Virus record (IMG/VR): IMGVR_UViG_2684623061_000002 | Coordinates: 1-64,000 of that record | Source: a virus | Taxonomy: Duplodnaviria > Caudoviricetes | Length of the DNA: 64,000 bases | Direction: 5' to 3' (one strand) | Part shown: positions 32,584 through 42,377 of the stretch, in pieces | Layout of the letters: each line of letters begins with the position of its first letter | Position numbering within the stretch: the first letter of the stretch is position 1 | Made by a program: the position numbers and the translations under genes | The notes under the pieces: generated by a model | Told to the model about the DNA's origin: nothing | The model's input: only the letters and a program-made list of their open reading frames with translations | The model's database searches: none

Positions 32584-35500
32584 TTACAACTGTGGTCGCA
32601 TTGCGTCGGTTTGCTTTTGGTTTTGCTGTTGCTCTGTCAACGCTCGCTCTTGGGTCTGTTGCTGTTCGTAATGCTGGCTTAGCGTCTGCGCCTCGCGCAA
32701 CGAGTCTTGCATCGGCGGCGCCGGCCCTTTCGCATCGACGCCAGCACGATATCCTGGCGTAACGCTGCCGACCCATAGCGTGCCATCCGCGACGCCAACT
32801 TGTCCCAGCCGGTCAACGTCCGGTATGCCGTTGCGCTTTGCTTCCACCATCGCGAGCGCGACGGTTTCATCCGATACGTTCGGCGCGCCACCGCGAATCC
32901 TGGCGAACATTGCTTGATCTTTCAGGCTTAGCTGCGACAGATCGAATGGCTCGGGGGGACGATCCGGCGCCGACCGTGCAGGCTCGTGCGTGCGATCCTC
33001 CTCATGTCTAGCGGTTGCGCGTGAGGATGCTGCGTGTCCGGGCGCATAGGCGAATGGTTCGGTGACCGGTGGCGGCTCGTGGGTTTGCGCCGTTACGGCC
33101 GATTCGTTCGAGGCTGTTTCCCGCGACGGCGAGCGGGATTGCGTTTCGGGTGGCGAGCGGTCGGGGAACCGCGCGTCCTGCGTGTCATCGCTGGCCGCTG
33201 TAGGTGGGCGGTGTTCGTGTACGGGCCGCGTAGGCGCTTCGTAGGGCGGGGGAGTGGCGACGGCGGCGGGTGCCGCGGTTGCCAGGGGCTCGGCACGAGG
33301 CGCGGTGCGGAGAGGCTCCTGTAATGGCTCGGGCGCGTCCGCGCCGCCGACCTTGGATGATTCGATACGCGCGTGTTGTGCCGCCGACAACGCTTGCTGC
33401 GTCGCCGGGTCGGTCATGCCAGTATCGGCTATCCCTTGATCGCGCTGGAACTGGCGCACGGCCTGTTCGGTCTTGGCGTCGTACTGTCCCGTTTGCGGCA
33501 AGGGCTCGCCTTCGGGACCGCGATAGCCGACTCGGTCCAGACGGTACTGCAAAAATTTAACTTCCTGACCTTCGCTGCCCGGACGCAATACATCGTCCGG
33601 GGCCGACGCGGCGGCGCTGGGCGGGTTGACTGCCGCATCCGGCGCGGGGCGGGCCGGTTCCGACCGTGTGACCGGCGAAACCACGTTAGCGGGTGCCGCT
33701 TGATGTTGTGCTGGCGCTGGCGTTTCCGCTTGTGGGGTCGGCTCCGGTTTGGCCGGTTCTGGTTCGGGTGCGAGTTCGACGGTAGGCGCAGCGGCGACCA
33801 CCGCAGGGGCGGGGCTGAATGACCGCTCACGTTCTGGACTGCTGTCCGTCAGCGTGACCGAAGGCGCTTCCGTGTGTGCGGATGGCCTATCGATCGGTAT
33901 CGAATCCGCGCGAGGTGCAGCGGGCGAAGTGGCCTGCGCGGCCGCTTGTTGCGCGACTTGCTGCACTCGGTCATGCGACAAACCTTCCCGATTGGCTTCG
34001 CGTAACGCTTGCTCCTGGGCCTCGCGTTGTTGCGGCGATAGCGCAGCTATCCGCAGTTCTGGGGTGTCCGGGATCAACGCAGGTGGCGCCCGGAGGTCCA
34101 CCATAGCCAACGCAATTTCGTCTCTACTCGTCACCGCCGCCACATGCACGACGCCCGCGCTATCAGCGCGCAGATGCGTGATGGGACTGTTTACGTCGTA
34201 TTTTTTCTCTGCGTTGGGTTCCAAGGACAGCGACGAAGTGGCGCGGTCTATGCCGTGTACGTCGCGCGTCCGCTCGACGGCTTCCAGCGCTGCGGCTAAA
34301 TGCTCCGGGTCCGGTTTGACACCGAACGCGTGATAGGTCGAAACTAAATTGTCCCGGTCTTGTTCCTCGCGCGTCGGCGGTTGCCATTGCGGTATCGCTG
34401 CCGTCTGCTGCTTGTGCTGCGCCAACTGCGGCTCCAAGGCGGCGCGTGTTCTGTCCAATTCCAGGCGCAAATTGCCCTGCGCAATGTCGCCGGATTCACC
34501 TTCACGGTGCCATTGCCCCCTGTCATTGTGGCGGTATTGATTGCCATCCGAAGCGGTGAGCGTGTCGGCGTTCAGTACTGCGCTGACGGCGGGTAGCTTC
34601 GCACCGAACGAAGCCCAGCCGGCTGAGGTATAGGCCAAGTCATAGCGCGCAGCAATCGGAGCTGGGCCGTTGGCGATGTTGTCCCGGATCACTTGCTCCG
34701 ATACCGCGTTAAGCTCCTCTGCGCGCTCCGGTGTCGCAGTTTCGGAACGCGTCATGGGCACGCCGCGCTGTTCAAAGCCGATGACTACGTCTCGATTCCA
34801 TTCGCCGGTACGCGGGTTGTGCTCCCAGTCGGCGCGTTGCAGGCTCGGCGTATCGCTTCGCACGGCCCGGAGTGTGTACGGATCGCGCGGTGGTTCTAGG
34901 TTTCTCGGCGCTAGTGCTAGTGCAGTTGCGGCGTTGCTCGCCCGATAGCTCAGTTCGCGGGCCTTCTCAGGTAGTGCGGAAAACTCCTGTTCAACGGGTT
35001 TATCTGCGCCGTCGTCGCGAAGGTCGGCCTGTTGATCGCGGACCCATTGCCGGCCATTGAAGCTCCAATCTACGTCGTCGCGGTCGGTTTGATTAAAGAC
35101 CCTGTGGTCATCCCACATTTTTGCGGCCTTCTCGCCCACGTAGCTTCCGGATATTGCGCCGACCGCGATAAAGCCAATCACGCCCGGTCCCGTCCAACTG
35201 CCAGCGGCGAGGCCCGAAGCGGCGCCACCGACCCAGCCGCCGACACCGACGCCTGCGTAATGCGCCATTTGCGACTGAGCTGCAAGTGGGTTGTCTTGCG
35301 CAAGTGACCTTGCGGTTCGCTCGCCGGCCTCGGCGGCGTCAACGACGCCAGCGACTAAACCGGCGCCGACGACGGCCTTAATCGCCGCGCCGCGTCCGAT
35401 GGCTCGCGTGGCCGAGCGCTCCGTGGTGGCTAAGTCAGCCTCGATGTGAAGCGCAAACGTCGCGCGAAGTTCCGTGACGCTGGACTCCGAAACCGTCAAG

Positions 35501-36150
35501 CGCCCCGCGCCATGAGCTTGATTGATCGCATCGCGCAGCGTGAGGTGGCCATCGATGCCTTCGCCTTTCGTAGGCTTGAGGCTAGGCTGATTTACCGCTC
35601 GTACTGTTGCGAGAACATTCTTCTCAGACTGAACAACCGCAGCCCACTCCGACTCAGGCATAGGCAGTTTGTTGACCTGACTAATTTGTGTGGCATGGGA
35701 CCGGGCGTATCCCTCGACATCGTCGAAAAAATCTTGTGTTTTCAGCCTGGACTGCGCGGAAGTCATTCCGGCCGGAGTGTTCGTATAGACGTCGCCATTT
35801 ATCAATGCGACCTTGAGTGTGTCCTGCAGATGATGCACACGCTCAACCACGCGCTCGGCAGCGGCGCGATCCCCGTTGAGCGCGGCCTTTCCATCCTTGG
35901 TTGCGGAGATCTCGTTTAGCTGAAATAGAACCCCGTCCGAGTACGCCTTGAAGTGGCCTCCCGTGTGAGGACTCACTCCCAACGTGCCGGCGAGCACTTT
36001 GTCATCGGGTAGATAAATCGTGTTGCGGGGACTATCGAGATCGTGCAGCCCCATTGCCTTAAGCTTTTGTAAGAGCGGGCTTCGGTCGAAAGCCTTGTTC
36101 TGCTCGATACAGTGATGCCACTCGAAGACGTGGCGCTCTGGCGAATTCAT
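32584..36150 (-). CDS. AHH/HNH-type nuclease toxin with peptidoglycan-binding domain and XVIPCD-like C-terminus (X-T4SS effector)
   Basis: HHCIE...LDSPRNTIYLP...PHTGGH..Y; LRPGSEGQEVKFLQ.RL...TEQAVRQFQ; DQAMF..IR...AKRNGI..VD.L followed by a Q-rich tail. Confidence 0.82.
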   Translation of the reverse strand: MNSPERHVFEWHHCIEQNKAFDRSPLLQKLKAMGLHDLDSPRNTIYLPDDKVLAGTLGVSPHTGGHFKAYSDGVLFQLNEISATKDGKAALNGDRAAAERVVERVHHLQDTLKVALINGDVYTNTPAGMTSAQSRLKTQDFFDDVEGYARSHATQISQVNKLPMPESEWAAVVQSEKNVLATVRAVNQPSLKPTKGEGIDGHLTLRDAINQAHGAGRLTVSESSVTELRATFALHIEADLATTERSATRAIGRGAAIKAVVGAGLVAGVVDAAEAGERTARSLAQDNPLAAQSQMAHYAGVGVGGWVGGAASGLAAGSWTGPGVIGFIAVGAISGSYVGEKAAKMWDDHRVFNQTDRDDVDWSFNGRQWVRDQQADLRDDGADKPVEQEFSALPEKARELSYRASNAATALALAPRNLEPPRDPYTLRAVRSDTPSLQRADWEHNPRTGEWNRDVVIGFEQRGVPMTRSETATPERAEELNAVSEQVIRDNIANGPAPIAARYDLAYTSAGWASFGAKLPAVSAVLNADTLTASDGNQYRHNDRGQWHREGESGDIAQGNLRLELDRTRAALEPQLAQHKQQTAAIPQWQPPTREEQDRDNLVSTYHAFGVKPDPEHLAAALEAVERTRDVHGIDRATSSLSLEPNAEKKYDVNSPITHLRADSAGVVHVAAVTSRDEIALAMVDLRAPPALIPDTPELRIAALSPQQREAQEQALREANREGLSHDRVQQVAQQAAAQATSPAAPRADSIPIDRPSAHTEAPSVTLTDSSPERERSFSPAPAVVAAAPTVELAPEPEPAKPEPTPQAETPAPAQHQAAPANVVSPVTRSEPARPAPDAAVNPPSAAASAPDDVLRPGSEGQEVKFLQYRLDRVGYRGPEGEPLPQTGQYDAKTEQAVRQFQRDQGIADTGMTDPATQQALSAAQHARIESSKVGGADAPEPLQEPLRTAPRAEPLATAAPAAVATPPPYEAPTRPVHEHRPPTAASDDTQDARFPDRSPPETQSRSPSRETASNESAVTAQTHEPPPVTEPFAYAPGHAASSRATARHEEDRTHEPARSAPDRPPEPFDLSQLSLKDQAMFARIRGGAPNVSDETVALAMVEAKRNGIPDVDRLGQVGVADGTLWVGSVTPGYRAGVDAKGPAPPMQDSLREAQTLSQHYEQQQTQERALTEQQQNQKQTDAMRPQL

Positions 36151-36201: not shown

Positions 36202-36858
36202 TCAATCCTTGGTCATGTCGATAAAGCGGATGCCAGTAAATCCATGTCCGCCAAGCGCGTTTCGCGTCACCCAGTCGCAGAATACGAAGTCCCCCGAATA
36301 CGGTGTTCTGAAGACGTGAGCGGCGCCCAGTACGTCACTCTTGAACACCAGATTGACGTTCCCTCCCAGACGGTAATACTTGCCGTTGTCGTACTCGTCA
36401 CTCACAACGACTCGGAGCCTTGAGCGCTCTTCGTCCACGGCGTCCAGTTCGCGAACGACATCGCACAAGAAGCGTTGAGGCCCAGGTGTTCCGTCAGGTA
36501 GCGTGAAGTCGCATGCAACGAATGCAAAGCCTTGGGGATCGACCGTCTCTAGCGCGTTCTTCAACGGCTCCGAGACAAGCCAATACCCACTCAGGCTGGC
36601 CTCAAGATCGCGGGGCATGTCGCCTGCGTCCGGGTCATAAACAAGATGAGGCTTTTCTGGCATCGCCGGGAACCCACCGCTCTCCGGCCGAATAATTAAG
36701 CGGGGCGGGCTCAGCAACTTGTCTTCATTAGCGATCACGACGCCGTGTCCTGGACCCTCGCCACGTATGTCCGTGTCGATGATGAAGAACTTCCCCTGCT
36801 TGGGAACACGCTGCGTATCGGTTTGCATAGCGGCTGCGCTCATCATTACGGTTTCCAT
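36202..36858 (-). CDS. Immunity protein (DUF1629/Imm11-like)
   Basis: GYWLVSE.LK....VDP..FAF..CD motif; immediately upstream of the toxin; exact start uncertain. Confidence 0.8.
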   Translation of the reverse strand: METVMMSAAAMQTDTQRVPKQGKFFIIDTDIRGEGPGHGVVIANEDKLLSPPRLIIRPESGGFPAMPEKPHLVYDPDAGDMPRDLEASLSGYWLVSEPLKNALETVDPQGFAFVACDFTLPDGTPGPQRFLCDVVRELDAVDEERSRLRVVVSDEYDNGKYYRLGGNVNLVFKSDVLGAAHVFRTPYSGDFVFCDWVTRNALGGHGFTGIRFIDMTKD

Positions 36859-37012
36859 CCTGGATTGCAGCGAGTATCGCCTATGCGTTGCGCCGCTGGC
36901 ATAGGATTTTTCCTACGCGAGGGTAAGGGCCACCCTCACGGAACTGTTGATGTGCCAAAGGAGCACAGACCTGCGCCTTGTGGCATAGGCGGCAGCCAGC
37001 GGCGCTGGCGCG

Positions 37013-37033
37013 CGGTCGAGACCCCGCCACGCC
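37013..37033 (-). other. Putative cohesive end site (cos)
   Basis: Minus strand GGCGTGGCGGGGTCTCGACCG; GGCG(T/A)GGCGGGG is the P2/186-family cos signature; lies distal to the portal gene. Confidence 0.75.
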
Positions 37034-37235
37034 TTCCCGCTACTTGTGTGCCTTTCGACTCAAATCACTGAGCCGGGCGCGCGCCCCGCCCGGAATGGCG
37101 ATAGATGTGCTCGGCGATGGCATTTTTTCGACGCGATTAGACGCACGCAAGGCGGTTTTTTGGCGCTGCGGCGAGCGCTCTCGATCGGTCGGTGAAATGA
37201 GCGGAAATCGCGGCTCTTTCCAGGCCAGGGGAGGG

Positions 37236-37536
37236 GCCATCGGAAAACGGTAACCTCATCGGGAAGGCCCGTTTTTTACTCGTAAGCCTATGATATTACA
37301 ACGATTATCAGGTTACCGCTGGGAGGTAATTTTCGGTAACTCGTCCGGTAACCGATGCGTAAGTAATTGATTTTAAAGAAGGTGCTAAGGCCGGGAGATT
37401 ACCTATACCTAGAGGTAATTAATTACCTTCTAGTTACTCTAATGGTTACCGCCGCCCTTCGCTGTAAGTCATTGTTGATATTAGGAAAAGCAGTTGCACG
37501 GAGCCCACGTTACCGATGTTACCGATTTCCGATGGC
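37236..37536. repeat. AT-rich iteron array bounded by 19-bp inverted repeats (candidate replication origin)
   Basis: About 12 GGTAA(C/T) / (G/A)TTACC copies, central palindrome AGGTAATTAATTACCT, IHF consensus at 37360-37372. Confidence 0.65.
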
Positions 37537-37620
37537 GCCCCAAATATTCTGGACTCATATAGCTCCGGCCAAAGTCTGCACAATCTCAGGCTGTAAGACG
37601 CTGGCCGCTACGATAGCTTC

Positions 37621-37920
37621 ATGCCTTCTTGTCTTGTTCGATACCGGGTCGTGATCGCGCCGCGTGGCCCCCGTGGCGCTGATCCTGCGCACGGCGTCGC
37701 CGGCACCGCCCAGGTTGATGAGGAATGGGAGCCCGACGAATGGGGCGATCCCGGTCGTTGCATCCGGCGTCGAACCCTCGTAGAGCTGCGCGGCTGTGAT
37801 GGTGGGTGCTATCTCGACCGCGCGCAGGGCCGCTCCGGCTTCTGGCGTATTACGTGCGCGAAAGTCGCCGGTCCGATCCGCTGGGCCGACGTGGCAGGCA
37901 TCGACATGGACCCGTGTTAG
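37621..37920 (+). CDS. Hypothetical protein
   Basis: 99-aa ORF between the iteron region and the retron promoter. Confidence 0.45.
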   Translation: MPSCLVRYRVVIAPRGPRGADPAHGVAGTAQVDEEWEPDEWGDPGRCIRRRTLVELRGCDGGCYLDRAQGRSGFWRITCAKVAGPIRWADVAGIDMDPC

Positions 37921-38011
37921 TTGAGCCTGGCAGGCCACTTATGGGAAGGCGAAGGGGGAGTGAGCAATCGCAAGTGGTCACTTTGGCCATGTCGCTGTGG
38001 GCGAACAAATG

Positions 38012-38040
38012 TTGACTCTGAGCGAACATGCGCGTAACGT
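38012..38040 (+). promoter_or_regulatory. Sigma70 promoter of the retron operon
   Basis: TTGACT-17 nt-TAACGT. Confidence 0.75.
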
Positions 38041-38044
38041 CCGT

Positions 38045-38354
38045 CACAGGTTCGTTAGGTGCTAGGAATCTCGGGTTTCACATCGGGCATTAGCCTGTGG
38101 GGGCGTCACGCTCCTGACCAATGCGGCGTGTCGGTAACAGGTCGAATTTCGATCATGGTCCGAGGGGTCGATACTAAGACCGTTCCCGAGAGGGGAACGG
38201 GGTTGATGATTAGAGGGACACGAAACTTATCTACCTAGTGGTCATAAACATCTTGTTGGAAATCCGAGAGGGCTTCGCAATTCTGCGGAGTCTTTTCAAC
38301 AAGGAGTTTTCTGTTTATGACAATCGATTCAAGCGAGCCTGATAAGTCTCTGTC
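38045..38354 (+). ncRNA. Putative retron ncRNA (msr/msd and translational repressor hairpin)
   Basis: Hairpins at 38099-38114, 38140-38154, 38180-38200 and a long stem 38217-38354 upstream of HTH-RT; boundaries approximate. Confidence 0.7.
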
Positions 38355-38487
38355 GGTCAAAAAGAACCGTCGCAACTGGGCAACATTCTTTGTGACGGTC
38401 GTTCTCACGGTGTCAAGAGTGGTAAGCGTTGCGCGATTCATCGATGACGCGATCCATACAATCCGCGAGTGGCTGACTAACCTTTAA
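38317..38487 (+). CDS. Small 56-aa protein, putative retron toxin (not in the ORF track)
   Basis: AAGGAG RBS at 38301-38306; MTIDSSEPDKSLSVKKNRRNWATFFVTVVLTVSRVVSVARFIDDAIHTIREWLTNL. Confidence 0.75.
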   Translation: MTIDSSEPDKSLSVKKNRRNWATFFVTVVLTVSRVVSVARFIDDAIHTIREWLTNL

Positions 38488-38512
38488 TTCATCTTTATTT
38501 TTGGAGTGCACA

Positions 38513-38827
38513 ATGGATAAATCCCAAATTTCTGAAGCGCTGCGATTGCTACGCTCATATCATGATCTGAGCCAAATTGATTTGGCGGCTCAGTTGAATA
38601 TTTCACGCTCCTATCTATCCGAGTTGGAAAGCGGTAAGCGACAGCCGAGCTTGGAACTGCTGAAGAATTATTCGCAGCATTTTAATGTGCCACTATCGGC
38701 AATTCTTTTGTTTTCTGAGTCGGTTGAATCTGGGGCCGTTGCGGAGCAGGCGCGTAAGGTTTCAACGAATGCTGCGCTTAAGTTGTTGAGTTGGGTTGAC
38801 AGTCATCGACGCGGCAAGGCTGCATGA
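38513..38827 (+). CDS. XRE-family HTH protein, retron-associated
   Basis: LSQIDLAAQLNISRSYLSELESGKRQPS; GGAG RBS; ATGA overlap with RT. Confidence 0.92.
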   Translation: MDKSQISEALRLLRSYHDLSQIDLAAQLNISRSYLSELESGKRQPSLELLKNYSQHFNVPLSAILLFSESVESGAVAEQARKVSTNAALKLLSWVDSHRRGKAA

Positions 38828-39759
38828 GCAAAGTTCTTCGCAAGTCCTATCCTGCTGCGCAATCGCCCTTATTTAGGTTGCGATCGAAGGCAAGGCTTGC
38901 GGAGTTGCTTGACGAAACTCCCAGACGGGTTCGAGAACTGATCACAGATAAGAACTACTGTGAATGGTTCACGAAGGCAAAGTACCCTGATTCCACGCAT
39001 CCGGCGTTAGTGCACAAACCAAGGGCGATTCAACAGCCTTTGGGGGCGTTGGATATGGCCCAGCGGCGATTGAATTCATTATTGTCGCGCATCGAATTGC
39101 CGGACTATCTGCACTCTGCGAGAAAGGGTAGGTCTTACCGGACCAACGCCGCTGCTCATTCCTCAGCTGGCCGGGCTATAAAAGTAGACATTCGCCAGTT
39201 CTACAGAAGCATCAACGATAGCTACATCCATGCATTCTTCAGGGATGTAATGGAATGCAGTCCAGACGTGACGCATATTCTTACAGAGCTAGCATCATTC
39301 GAGCGATATCTACCTACCGGAAGTTCATTGAGTCCGATAGTTTCATTTTTCGCCTACTGGCCCATGTTCGACAAGTTAAACAGCGTGGCGTCTTCAGTAG
39401 GTGCACAAATGACCGTGTACGTCGACGATGTAGTCATATCCGGTCCCGGCGTGTCCGGTTCTTTGATCCCGATTTGCAAGCGCATAATGAAAGATCACGG
39501 GCTGCGTGGTCATAAAGTTGCCTATTACCATTCAGGTAAGACTCGCGTGGTCACTGGCGTAGCTGTAAGTCCCAGAGGTCTTTCGATTCCCAATAAGCGA
39601 CTGATGAAGATTCGCGCTTTGCGCCAAGAAATGGATGCGGCAGTGGATCCTGCGACTAAAGCGCTTTACAAGCAGGCGGTGCTTGGACAGCTTAGGGAGG
39701 GCAGCCCGCTTGATCCGTCTTTTAGGACTTATAGTCAGGCGATCGAACGGATGGCGTAG
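38824..39759 (+). CDS. Retron-type reverse transcriptase
   Basis: NAAAH (region X), KVDIRQFY, LPTGSSLSP, YVDD, VTG (region Y). Confidence 0.95.
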   Translation: MSKVLRKSYPAAQSPLFRLRSKARLAELLDETPRRVRELITDKNYCEWFTKAKYPDSTHPALVHKPRAIQQPLGALDMAQRRLNSLLSRIELPDYLHSARKGRSYRTNAAAHSSAGRAIKVDIRQFYRSINDSYIHAFFRDVMECSPDVTHILTELASFERYLPTGSSLSPIVSFFAYWPMFDKLNSVASSVGAQMTVYVDDVVISGPGVSGSLIPICKRIMKDHGLRGHKVAYYHSGKTRVVTGVAVSPRGLSIPNKRLMKIRALRQEMDAAVDPATKALYKQAVLGQLREGSPLDPSFRTYSQAIERMA

Positions 39760-39908
39760 AGGGCTCGCCGGACACGTCAGTCCCCAGGTGCCCCAACACC
39801 AGCCGCCCCAGCCGCTCCCTTTGCTGGCGAAGGCGGAGGCCCGATCCCAGACTTAAATAGCGAAATCCGCAACGGTCAGCGCCCGATTACGGTCGAACGA
39901 GAAACAAT

Positions 39909-40199
39909 ATGGCTAAAGACACTCGCAAAACATCGAACACTAAAGGCGGCTCGAAATCGAAGTCCGCCGCCGGGACTGCAATTAAGAGCGATAAATCGGG
40001 AGCCTGGATAATTTCGAGCCGGAGTTCTAAGTCCGCGGCTGGGTCAGCATTGACGCAATCTGTTGGATCGCGGCGTGCGAGTAATGGCGAGTTCGTTCGG
40101 TTAGTACTGTCGTTGCCCGGCAAGAGCGGTTTGTCACGCGATAAGGTTGCGAAAGCCATAGACTCAGTTCAATCGAAGAAATCGAATAAAAAGGGCTGA
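39909..40199 (+). CDS. Small basic Ser/Lys-rich protein
   Basis: 96 aa, contains KSAAGTAI and KSAAGSALTQ; stop is 6 nt before the next gene. Confidence 0.7.
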   Translation: MAKDTRKTSNTKGGSKSKSAAGTAIKSDKSGAWIISSRSSKSAAGSALTQSVGSRRASNGEFVRLVLSLPGKSGLSRDKVAKAIDSVQSKKSNKKG

Positions 40200-40205
40200 T
40201 GCCAA

Positions 40206-40826
40206 ATGAAGACAGACTATGCGGCAAGTGTCTTTATTAATTGCCCATTTGACGCCGAGTACCGCGCGCTTCTTTTCGCTAAAGTTTTTGCCGTGTTTGA
40301 TTGCGGCTACTTGCCGCGTTGTTCTCAAGAAATTGAGGATGGCGGCGAGGTTCGGATTGAGAAGATAAGAAATATTATTCGTGAATGCAAATTCGGCGTA
40401 CATGATATTTCGAGAATTCAGGTGAATGGTGATCCGCCACTGCCTCGCTTCAATATGCCTTTTGAGTTAGGTCTCTTTGTCGGCGCCCGAATTTATGGTG
40501 GTGGAGACCAGAAGAAGAAAGTATGTTTAATTTTAGATGCTGATAAGTACCGTTATCAAAGGTCTCTGTCCGATATTGCCGGGCATGATATCCAAGAGCA
40601 TGGGAATGACCCGGAAATTGTTATTAAGAAAATAAGGAACTGGTTGCAGAATGCCACGCAGAGAAAGACCATTCCAGGCGGTCATATTATCGTCCAAAGG
40701 TACCGCCAGTTCATGGCTGAGCTTCCGGGTATCTGCGATACCCTAAATCTACAACAAGACACTTTGCTATTTAATGAGTTCGCTTTAATCGTAGAGACGT
40801 GGCTTAAGAAGAAGGACCCTGATTGA
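40206..40826 (+). CDS. TIR/nucleoside-deoxyribosyltransferase-like protein
   Basis: VFINCPFD, I..C..GVHD.S, NMPFELG, SDIAG.D; low GC. Confidence 0.72.
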   Translation: MKTDYAASVFINCPFDAEYRALLFAKVFAVFDCGYLPRCSQEIEDGGEVRIEKIRNIIRECKFGVHDISRIQVNGDPPLPRFNMPFELGLFVGARIYGGGDQKKKVCLILDADKYRYQRSLSDIAGHDIQEHGNDPEIVIKKIRNWLQNATQRKTIPGGHIIVQRYRQFMAELPGICDTLNLQQDTLLFNEFALIVETWLKKKDPD

Positions 40827-40877
40827 TGGTGGCTAGTGCACTCTTTCGTTGCACCAACTAAATAAAAGGTGACGATC

Positions 40878-41123
40878 ATGGCAAATAAGACCACAGGCTC
40901 CAAAGCAGCGACCTCTGCTTCGAACGTGCTGAAATCCAGCAGTACGGGTAAGGCATCCAAAGCGGCAGCTGGTAGCGCCCTCACTCAAAAAGGTAACGCG
41001 CGAGAGACGACGTCCAAAAAGGTGGCGACTCAGGCGTCTAACGTATTGCGCGACGGCCGTACTTCTCCCGAGTCGAAGAGCGCCGCCGGCAGTGCGCTAT
41101 CGCAAGCCAAGCGAAAGAAATAG
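40878..41123 (+). CDS. Small basic protein built from two 33-aa repeats
   Basis: TTGSKAATSASNVL...SKAAAGSALTQ and TTSKKVATQASNVL...SKSAAGSALSQ; AAAGGTG RBS. Confidence 0.8.
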   Translation: MANKTTGSKAATSASNVLKSSSTGKASKAAAGSALTQKGNARETTSKKVATQASNVLRDGRTSPESKSAAGSALSQAKRKK

Positions 41124-41163
41124 CTTGCTTTTGCCGGGAAAATTGGGGGGCGTGCAGACACTC

Positions 41164-41219
41164 AATCAACCACTTAACTAGATGTGTTCGGTAAAAATAC
41201 CCGATCTAAGTAGTTGATT
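41164..41219. promoter_or_regulatory. Two inverted IHF consensus sites in the att arm
   Basis: AATCAACCACTTA (41164-41176) and reverse AATCAACTACTTA (41207-41219) match WATCAANNNNTTR. Confidence 0.7.
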
Positions 41220-41236
41220 TGACAGCTAAGTTCATC

Positions 41237-41285
41237 AGACTTTTAATCTTTTGGTCGAAGGTTCGAATCCTTCACGACCCACCAA
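41237..41285 (+). repeat. att core: right end of prophage 1 and left end of prophage 2
   Basis: Exact copy of the tRNA-Lys 3' half (836-884). Confidence 0.96.
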
Positions 41286-41292
41286 TTTTCCA

Positions 41293-41316
41293 GGGGCTTC
41301 AGCGAAGCCCCCGTTT
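41293..41316 (+). terminator. Hairpin/terminator after the second att copy
   Basis: GGGGCTTC-AGC-GAAGCCCC with a short T run. Confidence 0.6.
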
Positions 41317-41342
41317 CCGCAATTACGGAAACTTTCCGCAAC

Positions 41343-42377
41343 TCATTTCGTCGGGGTGACCTTGTCGCCCCTGCGGTTGCGGATGTACTGCTCCGTCATC
41401 GTCACGGACGCGTGCCCCAATTGCTTCTGAGCCTGCCGGATGTCGCCGGCGGATTCCGCCTTGTCGGTTGCCGCCTTCGCGCGCAGGTCGCGCACCTGGA
41501 AGGCTGCCTTCGGCACCCCGGCCAGCCTTCGCGCCTTGTCGAAGCGATAGCGAAGCGCGCCAGGGGCGAGCGGGCGGCCGTCCTCGTCGACTATCAGCCG
41601 CGTGTGGTAGACCTCGCATGCGCGCTTCCTGGCCCTGATCCGCTCGATCACCTGCGCCAGCTCCCCTTCGACCGAAATCCGGCGCCGCTCCCTCGTCTTG
41701 CCCTGCTTGAGGTGCAAGAACCCGTCGCGTATGTCGGTGTCGTCGTACTTCCGCGTATCCGCCGGCCGCTGCCCGCAGAGATAGGCCAGGTCGAGTGCAT
41801 CGCGTAGCGGCTGGTCTGCCTGCGCGTAGACTGCGGCGAACACGTCGTCCTCGACGTACACGTCCCGGCCGCGCTCCTCGCTGCCCTGGATGCCCTTGCA
41901 TGGATTCTCCGCGTCCGTATAGCCCCACTGCCGCGCCTTGTTCCACATGTGCGAGAGCAGCGCCTTCTCGCGGTTCGCGCGCACCTTGGCCTTGGTGCCG
42001 TGCACCGTGCGCCAGTCCAGATACTGAGCGACATGCATCGGCCGCATGCTCGCAAGCGGCGCCGGCGGAGAGCCAAAGAACTCGCGCAGCTTGGCCAGTT
42101 CGCTGAGGTTTGACGTCTGCGTGCTCTCTGCCTTCGTCGGGATCACTTCGCGGGTGTAGCGATCGGCCAGGTGCGTGAACGTGATGATGTCGGGTACGGA
42201 GTGCTGTGCGGATTCCAGTTCAGCCCAACGTCGGACGGCCTCCGCATACACCCTTCCGAGCGAAAGCTCGCCCGGCTTCTTGGGGCGCTGGTCGTAGAAG
42301 TAATATGTGACCTTGCCGCGGACACGCGCAAGCATGCGCGGCGGCAGGTTGTGGAACCTGGATCGCTTCCGCCCCAT
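41343..42377 (-). CDS. Tyrosine recombinase / phage integrase
   Basis: GQRPAD, RDLRAKAATD, LGHASVTMTEQY. Confidence 0.95.
   Translation of the reverse strand: MGRKRSRFHNLPPRMLARVRGKVTYYFYDQRPKKPGELSLGRVYAEAVRRWAELESAQHSVPDIITFTHLADRYTREVIPTKAESTQTSNLSELAKLREFFGSPPAPLASMRPMHVAQYLDWRTVHGTKAKVRANREKALLSHMWNKARQWGYTDAENPCKGIQGSEERGRDVYVEDDVFAAVYAQADQPLRDALDLAYLCGQRPADTRKYDDTDIRDGFLHLKQGKTRERRRISVEGELAQVIERIRARKRACEVYHTRLIVDEDGRPLAPGALRYRFDKARRLAGVPKAAFQVRDLRAKAATDKAESAGDIRQAQKQLGHASVTMTEQYIRNRRGDKVTPTK

Follow-up and report, generated by a model that had tools for sequence, protein, structure and literature searches.

The window analyzed here, the first 64 kb of a 79,869 bp IMG/VR record classed as provirus (IMGVR_UViG_2684623061_000002), carries a retron in whose leader RNA a 138-nt stem-loop, hereafter the switch, encloses the translation start of a small protein (SP), the presumed toxic effector. 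This stem-loop is real and conserved, well beyond chance, and on balance we favour reading it as the riboregulator arm of a ~450-nt hybrid RNA (hyRNA) of a Type VI retron, with the multicopy single-stranded DNA (msDNA) of the retron relieving the repression of SP. The components of this reading carry different weight. We hold with high confidence that the switch is an element of this kind, and it likely represses SP translation; for the relief of that repression by msDNA at this locus, the chances appear about even. The mechanism has already been described for Retron-Vpa2, and the window is a new, divergent and prophage-borne example.

The switch RNA folds with a minimum free energy (MFE) of -45.8 kcal/mol, compared to -30.4 +/- 3.46 kcal/mol for dinucleotide shuffles (z -4.45), none of 200 shuffles being as stable, and the minus strand of the same interval folds worse (-37.0 kcal/mol, z -2.54). 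As a control, 109 mechanical starts of open reading frames (ORFs) of 150 aa or more were scored across the window; two reached z <= -4, and the switch site scored -4.99 in the same test. The predicted structure is a three-tier helix in which the SP start codon is paired, as are four of the six bases of the Shine-Dalgarno (SD) sequence AAGGAG. The original prediction, made from the sequence alone, had put forward a long stem-loop sequestering both, and most of its pairings were recovered: those of GTCATAAACA with TGTTTATGAC (the AUG helix), of CTTGTTG with CAACAAG (the SD helix) and of ACTTATC (38225-38231) with GATAAGT (38341-38347) appear in the inverted-repeat list and in the MFE structure, and that of GACA (38217-38220) with TGTC (38351-38354) in the MFE structure. 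Its TCCG/CGGA and AGAG/TTCT inner stems are complementary but absent from the MFE and centroid folds, and in nine related loci (defined below) 64.4% of their cells were paired, as in shuffles, with no pair changed on both sides, in a test that used an alignment fitted to the rival structure.

Pair probabilities of 0.99-1.0 were obtained for the AUG. For CAACAAGG (38297-38304) they ranged between 0.84 and 1.0, with four of the six SD bases at 0.93-0.98 and the last two, A38305 and G38306, at 0.13 and 0.06. Because of these values, the AUG is predicted to be fully sequestered and the SD about two-thirds hidden, so that the proposed sequestration stands for the start codon and in part for the SD. 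The switch overlaps 38 nt of coding sequence, and its helix is not followed by a U-tract.

To place the switch in a comparative context, 215 RT (reverse transcriptase) relatives were identified at E <= 0.001 among the scored candidates, the closest non-self one being 60% identical; a single-protein locus search returned no match. Alignment-based scans yielded 60 loci, of which 16 came from genomes, 5 from viruses and 39 from metagenomes. A relative of the retron helix-turn-helix (HTH) protein was present upstream of the RT gene in 46 of the 60 fetched loci (L002-L061), and a small ORF of at least 25 aa ended near the HTH start in all 45 examined of those 46 (L056 was left out). Most of these small ORFs, judged by eye, are basic with a hydrophobic C-terminal half. 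The SP type of the window, with C-terminus ...WL(T/A)(N/D)L, is common to eight loci (L002-L006 and L023-L025) in assemblies of Nevskia, Panacagrimonas, Methylococcaceae and Thiodictyon and in metagenomes, at RT identities of 42-60%; these eight and the window's own copy (L001) constitute the nine clade loci.

Folded singly, all nine clade loci yield the same nested outer, AUG and SD helices and the apical hairpin. Because plain MAFFT alignments of the leaders were out of register for most helices, a covariance model was seeded from the window sequence alone. With filters off, it detected the element in each of the nine loci (E 1.4e-46 to 3e-4), always in the same position ahead of SP and with a nearly constant length of 126-141 nt. 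Standard pairs occupy 92.5% of the 334 cells in the model alignment, versus 61.3% in shuffled and 34-44% in slid controls, and among the nine loci both partners have changed in 34 of 39 pairs. The covariation score was 0.821 versus 0.243 and was reached by none of 500 shuffles. In the AUG helix, nine of ten pairs present compensatory changes. Folding and covariation across homologous leaders, which the original prediction had named as its check, hence returned the same helix.

The model rebuilt from these data (R2) gave no matches in 656 kb of unrelated viral DNA, and in other Type VI clades it produced only a marginal match (E 0.033), shared by a group of five identical loci (L018-L020, L031 and L032). 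A search of viral contigs with the DNA pattern TTAGAGGG-N35-55-CCGAGA likewise returned only chance occurrences among the best 80 of 118 stretches, none of them an R2 match. The AUG reaches a pair probability of at least 0.8 in 8 of the 9 clade loci versus 9 of 25 other Type VI loci, and the SD core one of at least 0.5 in 8 of 9 and 23 of 25, respectively. The independent folds of other clades share a plan in which the anti-SD strand is followed by a short motif left unpaired, then by an apical hairpin and finally by the SD.

The retron opens an islet of low GC content (38200-41400; GC 0.45-0.54 vs 0.56-0.69 in its surroundings) bounded by a toxin-immunity gene pair on one side and a phage integrase on the other. 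[quoted passage not shown] Following the criteria of the Mestre et al. 2020 classification, as implemented in PADLOC-DB, the RT was placed by profile: its match to RT_VI covers 267 of 279 positions, and the next best profile is RT_III-A (4.8e-33). On these profile names and the SP-HTH-RT layout, we assign the locus to the Type VI retrons. Residues Y199, D201 and D202 are invariant in an alignment of 25 RT relatives, and the YxDD box points to a catalytically competent enzyme.

The N-terminus of the SP encoded at the switch is polar and basic. Residues ~21-41 are hydrophobic, the hydrophobic helix may be followed by an amphipathic C-terminal tail (RFIDDAIHTIREWLTNL), and the protein ends in WLTNL. 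No family for it was found in Pfam, PADLOC or NCBIfam, and its best protein atlas scores (0.81-0.82) fall within the range of shuffled controls. The named Type VI SP clusters are cl2075, cl2760, cl3272 and cl3897. Among loci L001-L061, tblastn detected SP relatives only in L002 and L004, and related loci carry positional analogues of SP upstream of the HTH gene. By analogy with Retron-Vpa2 and Retron-Sen3, SP would be toxic. The SP frame is broken in two of the nine clade loci (L005, 1972-2146, and L025, 1462-1637) and intact in L006; the RNA structure is kept in both, and the broken frames could be due to assembly error or to toxin inactivation.

The RNA surrounding the switch is organized as expected for a retron leader that continues into a coding sequence. 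A candidate promoter lies upstream, and all eight loci with enough upstream sequence can be aligned over TTGACT/TTGACA, a spacer of 17-18 nt and a box resembling TAnnnT, suggesting a transcript start near 38046-38048. Two GCGAACA boxes (38001-38007 and 38022-38028), 21 nt apart, flank the -35 box, with similar boxes aligned in related loci; from sequence, they could be a candidate HTH operator for autoregulation. When 38048-38520 is folded, msr-like hairpins, the msd domain, an IR1/IR2 (inverted repeat) helix, the switch and the folded remainder of SP follow in this order. The msr-like stems vary between loci yet stay complementary, as judged by eye on the alignment. The segment that we take, by analogy, as the msd comprises a long hairpin that varies in length between loci and a short, 21-nt hairpin, for which five of eight pairs changed on both sides in the plain MAFFT alignment and 92.9% of cells were paired versus 35-60% in slid controls.

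IR1 and IR2 enclose the switch and the SP coding sequence, and an equivalent duplex is present in all nine clade loci (-13.5 to -20.4 kcal/mol). L002 offers a paired substitution: IR1 has C instead of A, and IR2 has the answering G instead of U, which turns the last SP residue from L to R. A U-rich run (UUUAUUUUU) follows IR2 (window 38481-38503), ahead of the HTH ribosome-binding site, with a comparable run in three of the nine loci; this run could help end the hyRNA. Rfam 15 returned four matches on 36500-41500, all below their gathering scores and none relevant. As in the original prediction, neither an a1/a2 pair nor a branching G was assignable, the pairings between 5' and 3' ends being weak and inconsistent across loci.

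Canonical retron msr-msd RNAs, such as that of Ec86, are non-coding RNAs adjacent to the RT gene with small msr hairpins, a long and variable msd hairpin and flanking inverted repeats. The leader described here resembles them in its proximity to the RT gene, its msr hairpins, its variable msd hairpin and its inverted repeats. Unlike them, it runs into coding sequence, its closing inverted repeat lies 3' of the msd and past SP instead of at the msr-msd ends, and it presents no assignable a1/a2 pair or branching G.

The leader also contains a 9-nt direct repeat, CCGAGAGGG, with one copy in the loop of the short msd hairpin and the other in the switch. The central five bases of repeat 1 are unpaired with probability ~1. 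All nine clade loci carry the CCGAGA core twice, roughly 115-132 nt and 42-53 nt ahead of the SP AUG. Other clades carry different repeats at the same two places (CCGAAAGG, ACGAGGCU, GGACGAC, GGGCGAC, GCGAGAG, GCGGCAC and GUCAGAG), and in the retron of Yersinia phage vB_YenM_56.17 the repeat UGGCGAC is found in an upstream hairpin loop and beside the anti-SD strand. At least nine different 7-9-mers were observed across clades, with a per-locus chance of 0.004-0.22 by shuffling.

Such repeat pairs might form a lineage-specific address code in which the msd hairpin loop and the internal loop change together, a suggestion drawn from sequence that we regard as doubtful; if it were true, each retron's msDNA would open only its own toxin mRNA. 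The first small msr hairpin contains a motif, UCUCGG, complementary to both CCGAGA copies, with counterparts at the same distance from SP in the CCGAAAGG clade (CUUUCGG) and in L046 (CCUCGU, for repeat ACGAGGCU). In the 13 loci of two clades that keep the motif, its shuffle frequencies range from 0.05 to 0.69 per locus, and in seven other loci tested, including L046 at 0.67, it was absent or no better than chance; six other groups lack it. This motif could hold repeat 1 or repeat 2 at rest and be freed when the template is copied. The co-variation of the repeats and the UCUCGG motif appear to be absent from the main text of the two preprints discussed next.

The closest described counterpart is Retron-Vpa2, a Vibrio parahaemolyticus Type VI retron assigned to the 'Large' lineage. 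[quoted passage not shown] A conserved 7-nt direct repeat is present in the msd loop and in the riboregulator loop. Its msDNA is undetectable at rest and accumulates as an 86-nt species (63 + 23) on triggering; it maps to the upstream arm, with the repeat at its 5' end. The msDNA is required and, supplied in trans, sufficient for translation of SP, which is toxic. In trans, msDNA from another retron sufficed for induction, and its 5' stem-loop was required. RT, HTH and hyRNA co-purify, and Zhang et al. propose that the reverse-transcribed repeat hybridizes to the riboregulator.

The anatomical features by which a hyRNA is recognized are found in the window: an RBS and start codon in a stem-loop, three arms with inverted repeats, and a direct repeat in two places. 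The SP-HTH-RT operon, the leader of ~450-470 nt, its msr-msd, RBS/AUG-pairing and SP arms and the inverted repeats are shared with Retron-Vpa2 as described in the preprint, and the short direct repeat shares its position in the msd hairpin loop and the riboregulator. The candidate msd is ~85 nt long, compared with the 86-nt msDNA, and the repeat of the window is held in its 3'-terminal 21-nt hairpin. The two systems differ in that the RBS and AUG of Retron-Vpa2 are reported in two stem-loops, whereas in the window and in 8 of the 9 clade loci both are paired within a single uninterrupted three-tier helix, whose outer part extends to SP codons 9-13.

The evidence outlined above suggests the following course of events, by analogy with Retron-Vpa2. 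A single transcript starting at ~38047 would contain the msr-like hairpins, the msd (~38120-38204), IR1, the switch, the rest of SP and IR2. At rest, the switch would pair the AUG and most of the SD, and the small hydrophobic SP would be poorly translated. Upon phage infection, msDNA copied from the msd would accumulate, carrying the complement of CCGAGAGGG in its 5' hairpin loop, and this loop would pair with repeat 2, which lies in the internal loop that immediately follows the anti-SD strand. That contact would help to release the SD and AUG, a step in which a protein partner or RNase H acting on the short hybrid may be involved; SP would then be made, and the infected cell stopped.

The translational OFF switch advanced in the original prediction is thus partly supported: it fits the anatomy and the covariation and matches the Retron-Vpa2 experiments, its function here being read by analogy. 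Two routes of opening had been offered with it. Pairing of reverse-transcribed DNA to one arm has gained a concrete candidate, the complementary DNA (cDNA) of the upstream repeat CCGAGAGGG, complementary to 38264-38272, though co-folding predicts no opening. Reverse transcription of one switch arm is unlikely because the probable template, the msd, lies in the upstream arm (~38120-38204), as judged by homology of layout.

Several observations weigh against the proposed mechanism. When the switch was co-folded with the cDNA of the msd, of the 21-nt hairpin or of the 9-mer, the SD and AUG remained paired as before, and in the case of the 21-nt hairpin the joint structure had an MFE of -57.2, compared to -60.7 for the strands folded apart; this is a weak test, as it applies nearest-neighbour RNA parameters to a DNA strand and loop-loop contacts lie outside the model. 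The complementarity between msDNA and repeat spans 6-9 nt and ends before the anti-SD strand, and repeat 2 is partly paired in the window MFE structure (P 0.54-1.0). In the fold, A38305, G38306 and the 10-nt spacer stay single-stranded, making leaky translation possible. No repeat of at least 7 nt was found at the expected places in 10 of the 33 loci scanned, which have at best a 6-mer. The -10 box of the window is weak, and a simple promoter scan returned no sites. The covariation alignment was fitted by the model to the structure, and its nine sequences fall into about four subgroups; MAFFT with RNAalifold recovered only a 7-pair AUG helix, with compensatory changes in four of the seven pairs. 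The function of the locus is argued by analogy with Retron-Vpa2.

Further caution comes from the Retron-Sen3/cl2075 lineage. As described in the main text of the preprint by Garcia-Rodriguez et al. (bioRxiv 10.64898/2026.04.27.721009), this lineage has a conserved non-coding RNA with a predicted sequestered RBS and an IR1-IR2 pair around SP, yet its single-stranded DNA and SP are constitutive and HTH is an antitoxin that neutralizes SP post-translationally. Because an RBS predicted to be sequestered coexists there with constitutive SP, predicted sequestration is no proof of repression. Paired repeats are also present in the retron of the Yersinia phage, which may belong to the Sen3 lineage, and because of this the repeats do not separate the Vpa2 and Sen3 modes.

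These observations lend substance to a reading in which the RNA serves as a scaffold for an RT-HTH complex and for transcript stability, SP is made constitutively and neutralized by HTH, and the SD/AUG pairing tunes its level. The RBS-sequestering stem and the IR1-IR2 pair predicted for Retron-Sen3 have their equivalents in the window, and the likeness extends, in the account of Garcia-Rodriguez et al., to a structured RNA upstream of and across SP, an IR2 just after or over the SP stop and covariation within the SP coding region. The possible amphipathic tail of SP is of the kind that these authors link to HTH binding, and the two free SD bases and the lack of predicted cDNA-driven opening are also compatible with tuning. 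Nonetheless, the near-complete pairing of the AUG, in a helix with compensatory changes in most of its pairs, constitutes a stronger block than RBS pairing alone, and the repeat pair of the Vpa2 model is present and conserved in all nine clade loci. The window RT is, moreover, only 31.6% identical to that of the Yersinia phage, a possible representative of the Sen3 lineage. We hence consider this explanation rather unlikely. As to other differences, the main text of Garcia-Rodriguez et al. makes no mention of direct repeats (0 occurrences of the term 'direct repeat'), and a comparison by eye detected no similarity between the SP of the window and that of the Yersinia phage retron (L180).

The repeats could instead be sites for a protein, RT or HTH, with protein bound at repeat 2 keeping the switch shut until titrated by msDNA. 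That the two copies are identical and vary in step would be expected from protein recognition no less than from pairing, and hybridization-driven opening is not predicted. Many repeat-1 copies resemble closed tetraloop-type loops, such as CC-GAGA-GG and CC-GAAA-GG, which we take to be GNRA tetraloops. The co-purification of RT, HTH and hyRNA in Retron-Vpa2 points in the same direction, but the finding by Zhang et al. that msDNA from another retron sufficed in trans, provided that its 5' stem-loop was present, argues against it while leaving a protein partner compatible, and we regard this option as quite improbable.

That the stem-loop is itself the msd, or part of an msr-msd, so that reverse transcription of an arm would open the SD and AUG, might be thought because no other hairpin of the leader is as long or as stable and retron msd regions are long hairpins. 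Its overlap with coding sequence and its nearly constant length, while 38124-38170 varies as msd stems do, make this very unlikely; in Retron-Vpa2 the msDNA is the upstream arm with the repeat at its 5' end, equivalent here to 38180-38200 (Zhang et al.). A chance leader structure, terminator or attenuator with no retron-specific role is hardly credible: the two other ORF starts of comparable stability speak for it, as does a terminator scan with one weak site only, on the opposite strand and inside the SP coding sequence, but the covariation, the retention of the element in every clade locus at the RT divergence given above and the missing U-tract speak against it.

If msDNA-relieved repression holds, the design in which a toxin message is locked in the retron's own template RNA would extend to a divergent, prophage-borne clade. 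The pairing of SD and AUG in one covarying helix would represent a compact natural variant, in which a DNA-RNA contact of 6-9 nt faces a helix of ~26 bp, and the clade-specific repeat pairs would provide natural compensatory mutants for the published hybridization hypothesis. Toehold-type riboregulators and the leaders of type I toxin mRNAs also hide SD and AUG in a hairpin. The switch resembles toehold-type devices in that the single-stranded patch beside its anti-SD strand could take a trans-acting strand; it differs from them in the short complementarity of the trigger, which stops short of the anti-SD strand, and in the nature of that trigger, a DNA that the retron's own RT would synthesize.

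Table 1. Features of the retron locus and its leader RNA (window coordinates).
Feature	Position	Strand	Basis or description
Candidate hyRNA promoter	38012-38040	+	-35 TTGACT 38012-38017; 17-nt spacer; -10 TAACGT 38035-38040
msr-like hairpins	38065-38079, 38084-38097, 38099-38115	+	Fold of 38048-38520
UCUCGG motif	38069-38074	+	Complementary to both CCGAGA copies
Candidate msd	38116-38204	+	Folds; analogy with Retron-Vpa2
msd closing helix	38116-38119 with 38201-38204	+	GACC with GGUU
msd long hairpin	38124-38170	+	
msd short hairpin	38180-38200	+	Loop carries repeat 1
Repeat 1	38186-38194	+	
IR1, 5' arm of long-range inverted repeat	38205-38216	+	GAUGAUUAGAGG; duplex -13.5 kcal/mol
Switch, putative riboregulator arm (138 nt)	38217-38354	+	Fold and covariation
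Outer helix	38217-38231 with 38341-38354	+	MFE
AUG helix	38241-38250 with 38312-38321	+	MFE; 10 nt, 100% complementary
SD helix	38252-38258 with 38297-38303	+	MFE
Repeat 2	38264-38272	+	
Apical hairpin	38271-38279 with 38284-38292	+	Comparative data; CCGAGAG left unpaired
SD (AAGGAG)	38301-38306	+	
AUG of SP	38317-38319	+	
SP, presumed toxic effector (56 aa)	38317-38487	+	ORF
IR2, 3' arm	38481-38493	+	CCUUUAAUUCAUC; overlaps last SP codons and stop (38485-38487)
HTH protein (104 aa)	38513-38827	+	PADLOC HTH_VI 1.7e-32; Pfam HTH_3 6.2e-14
Retron RT (311 aa), YVDD box	38824-39759	+	PADLOC RT_VI 1.4e-75; Pfam RVT_1 9.3e-8

The genes around the retron were also inspected. Just to its left lies a polymorphic toxin-immunity pair on the minus strand. 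The 1187-aa product of 32584-36150 contains a peptidoglycan-binding domain (3e-15) and a weak N-terminal match to an AHH nuclease (3.2e-4, below cut-off), and 36202-36858 encodes an Imm11 immunity protein (4.3e-66). Three plus-strand ORFs (39909-40199, 40206-40826 and 40869-41123), which may be further cargo, lie in the islet between the retron and the integrase (41343-42377, minus strand). The central one, of 206 aa, has no family in Pfam, PADLOC or NCBIfam and is flanked by two small K/S-rich ORFs with a SAAGSALTQ-like motif. Retrons with the SP-HTH-RT layout also occur in P2-like phages: in Yersinia phage vB_YenM_56.17 (L180, 977-2397) the retron lies between tail and baseplate genes, and in Burkholderia phage KS5 (L181) the small ORF upstream of the regulator is unannotated.

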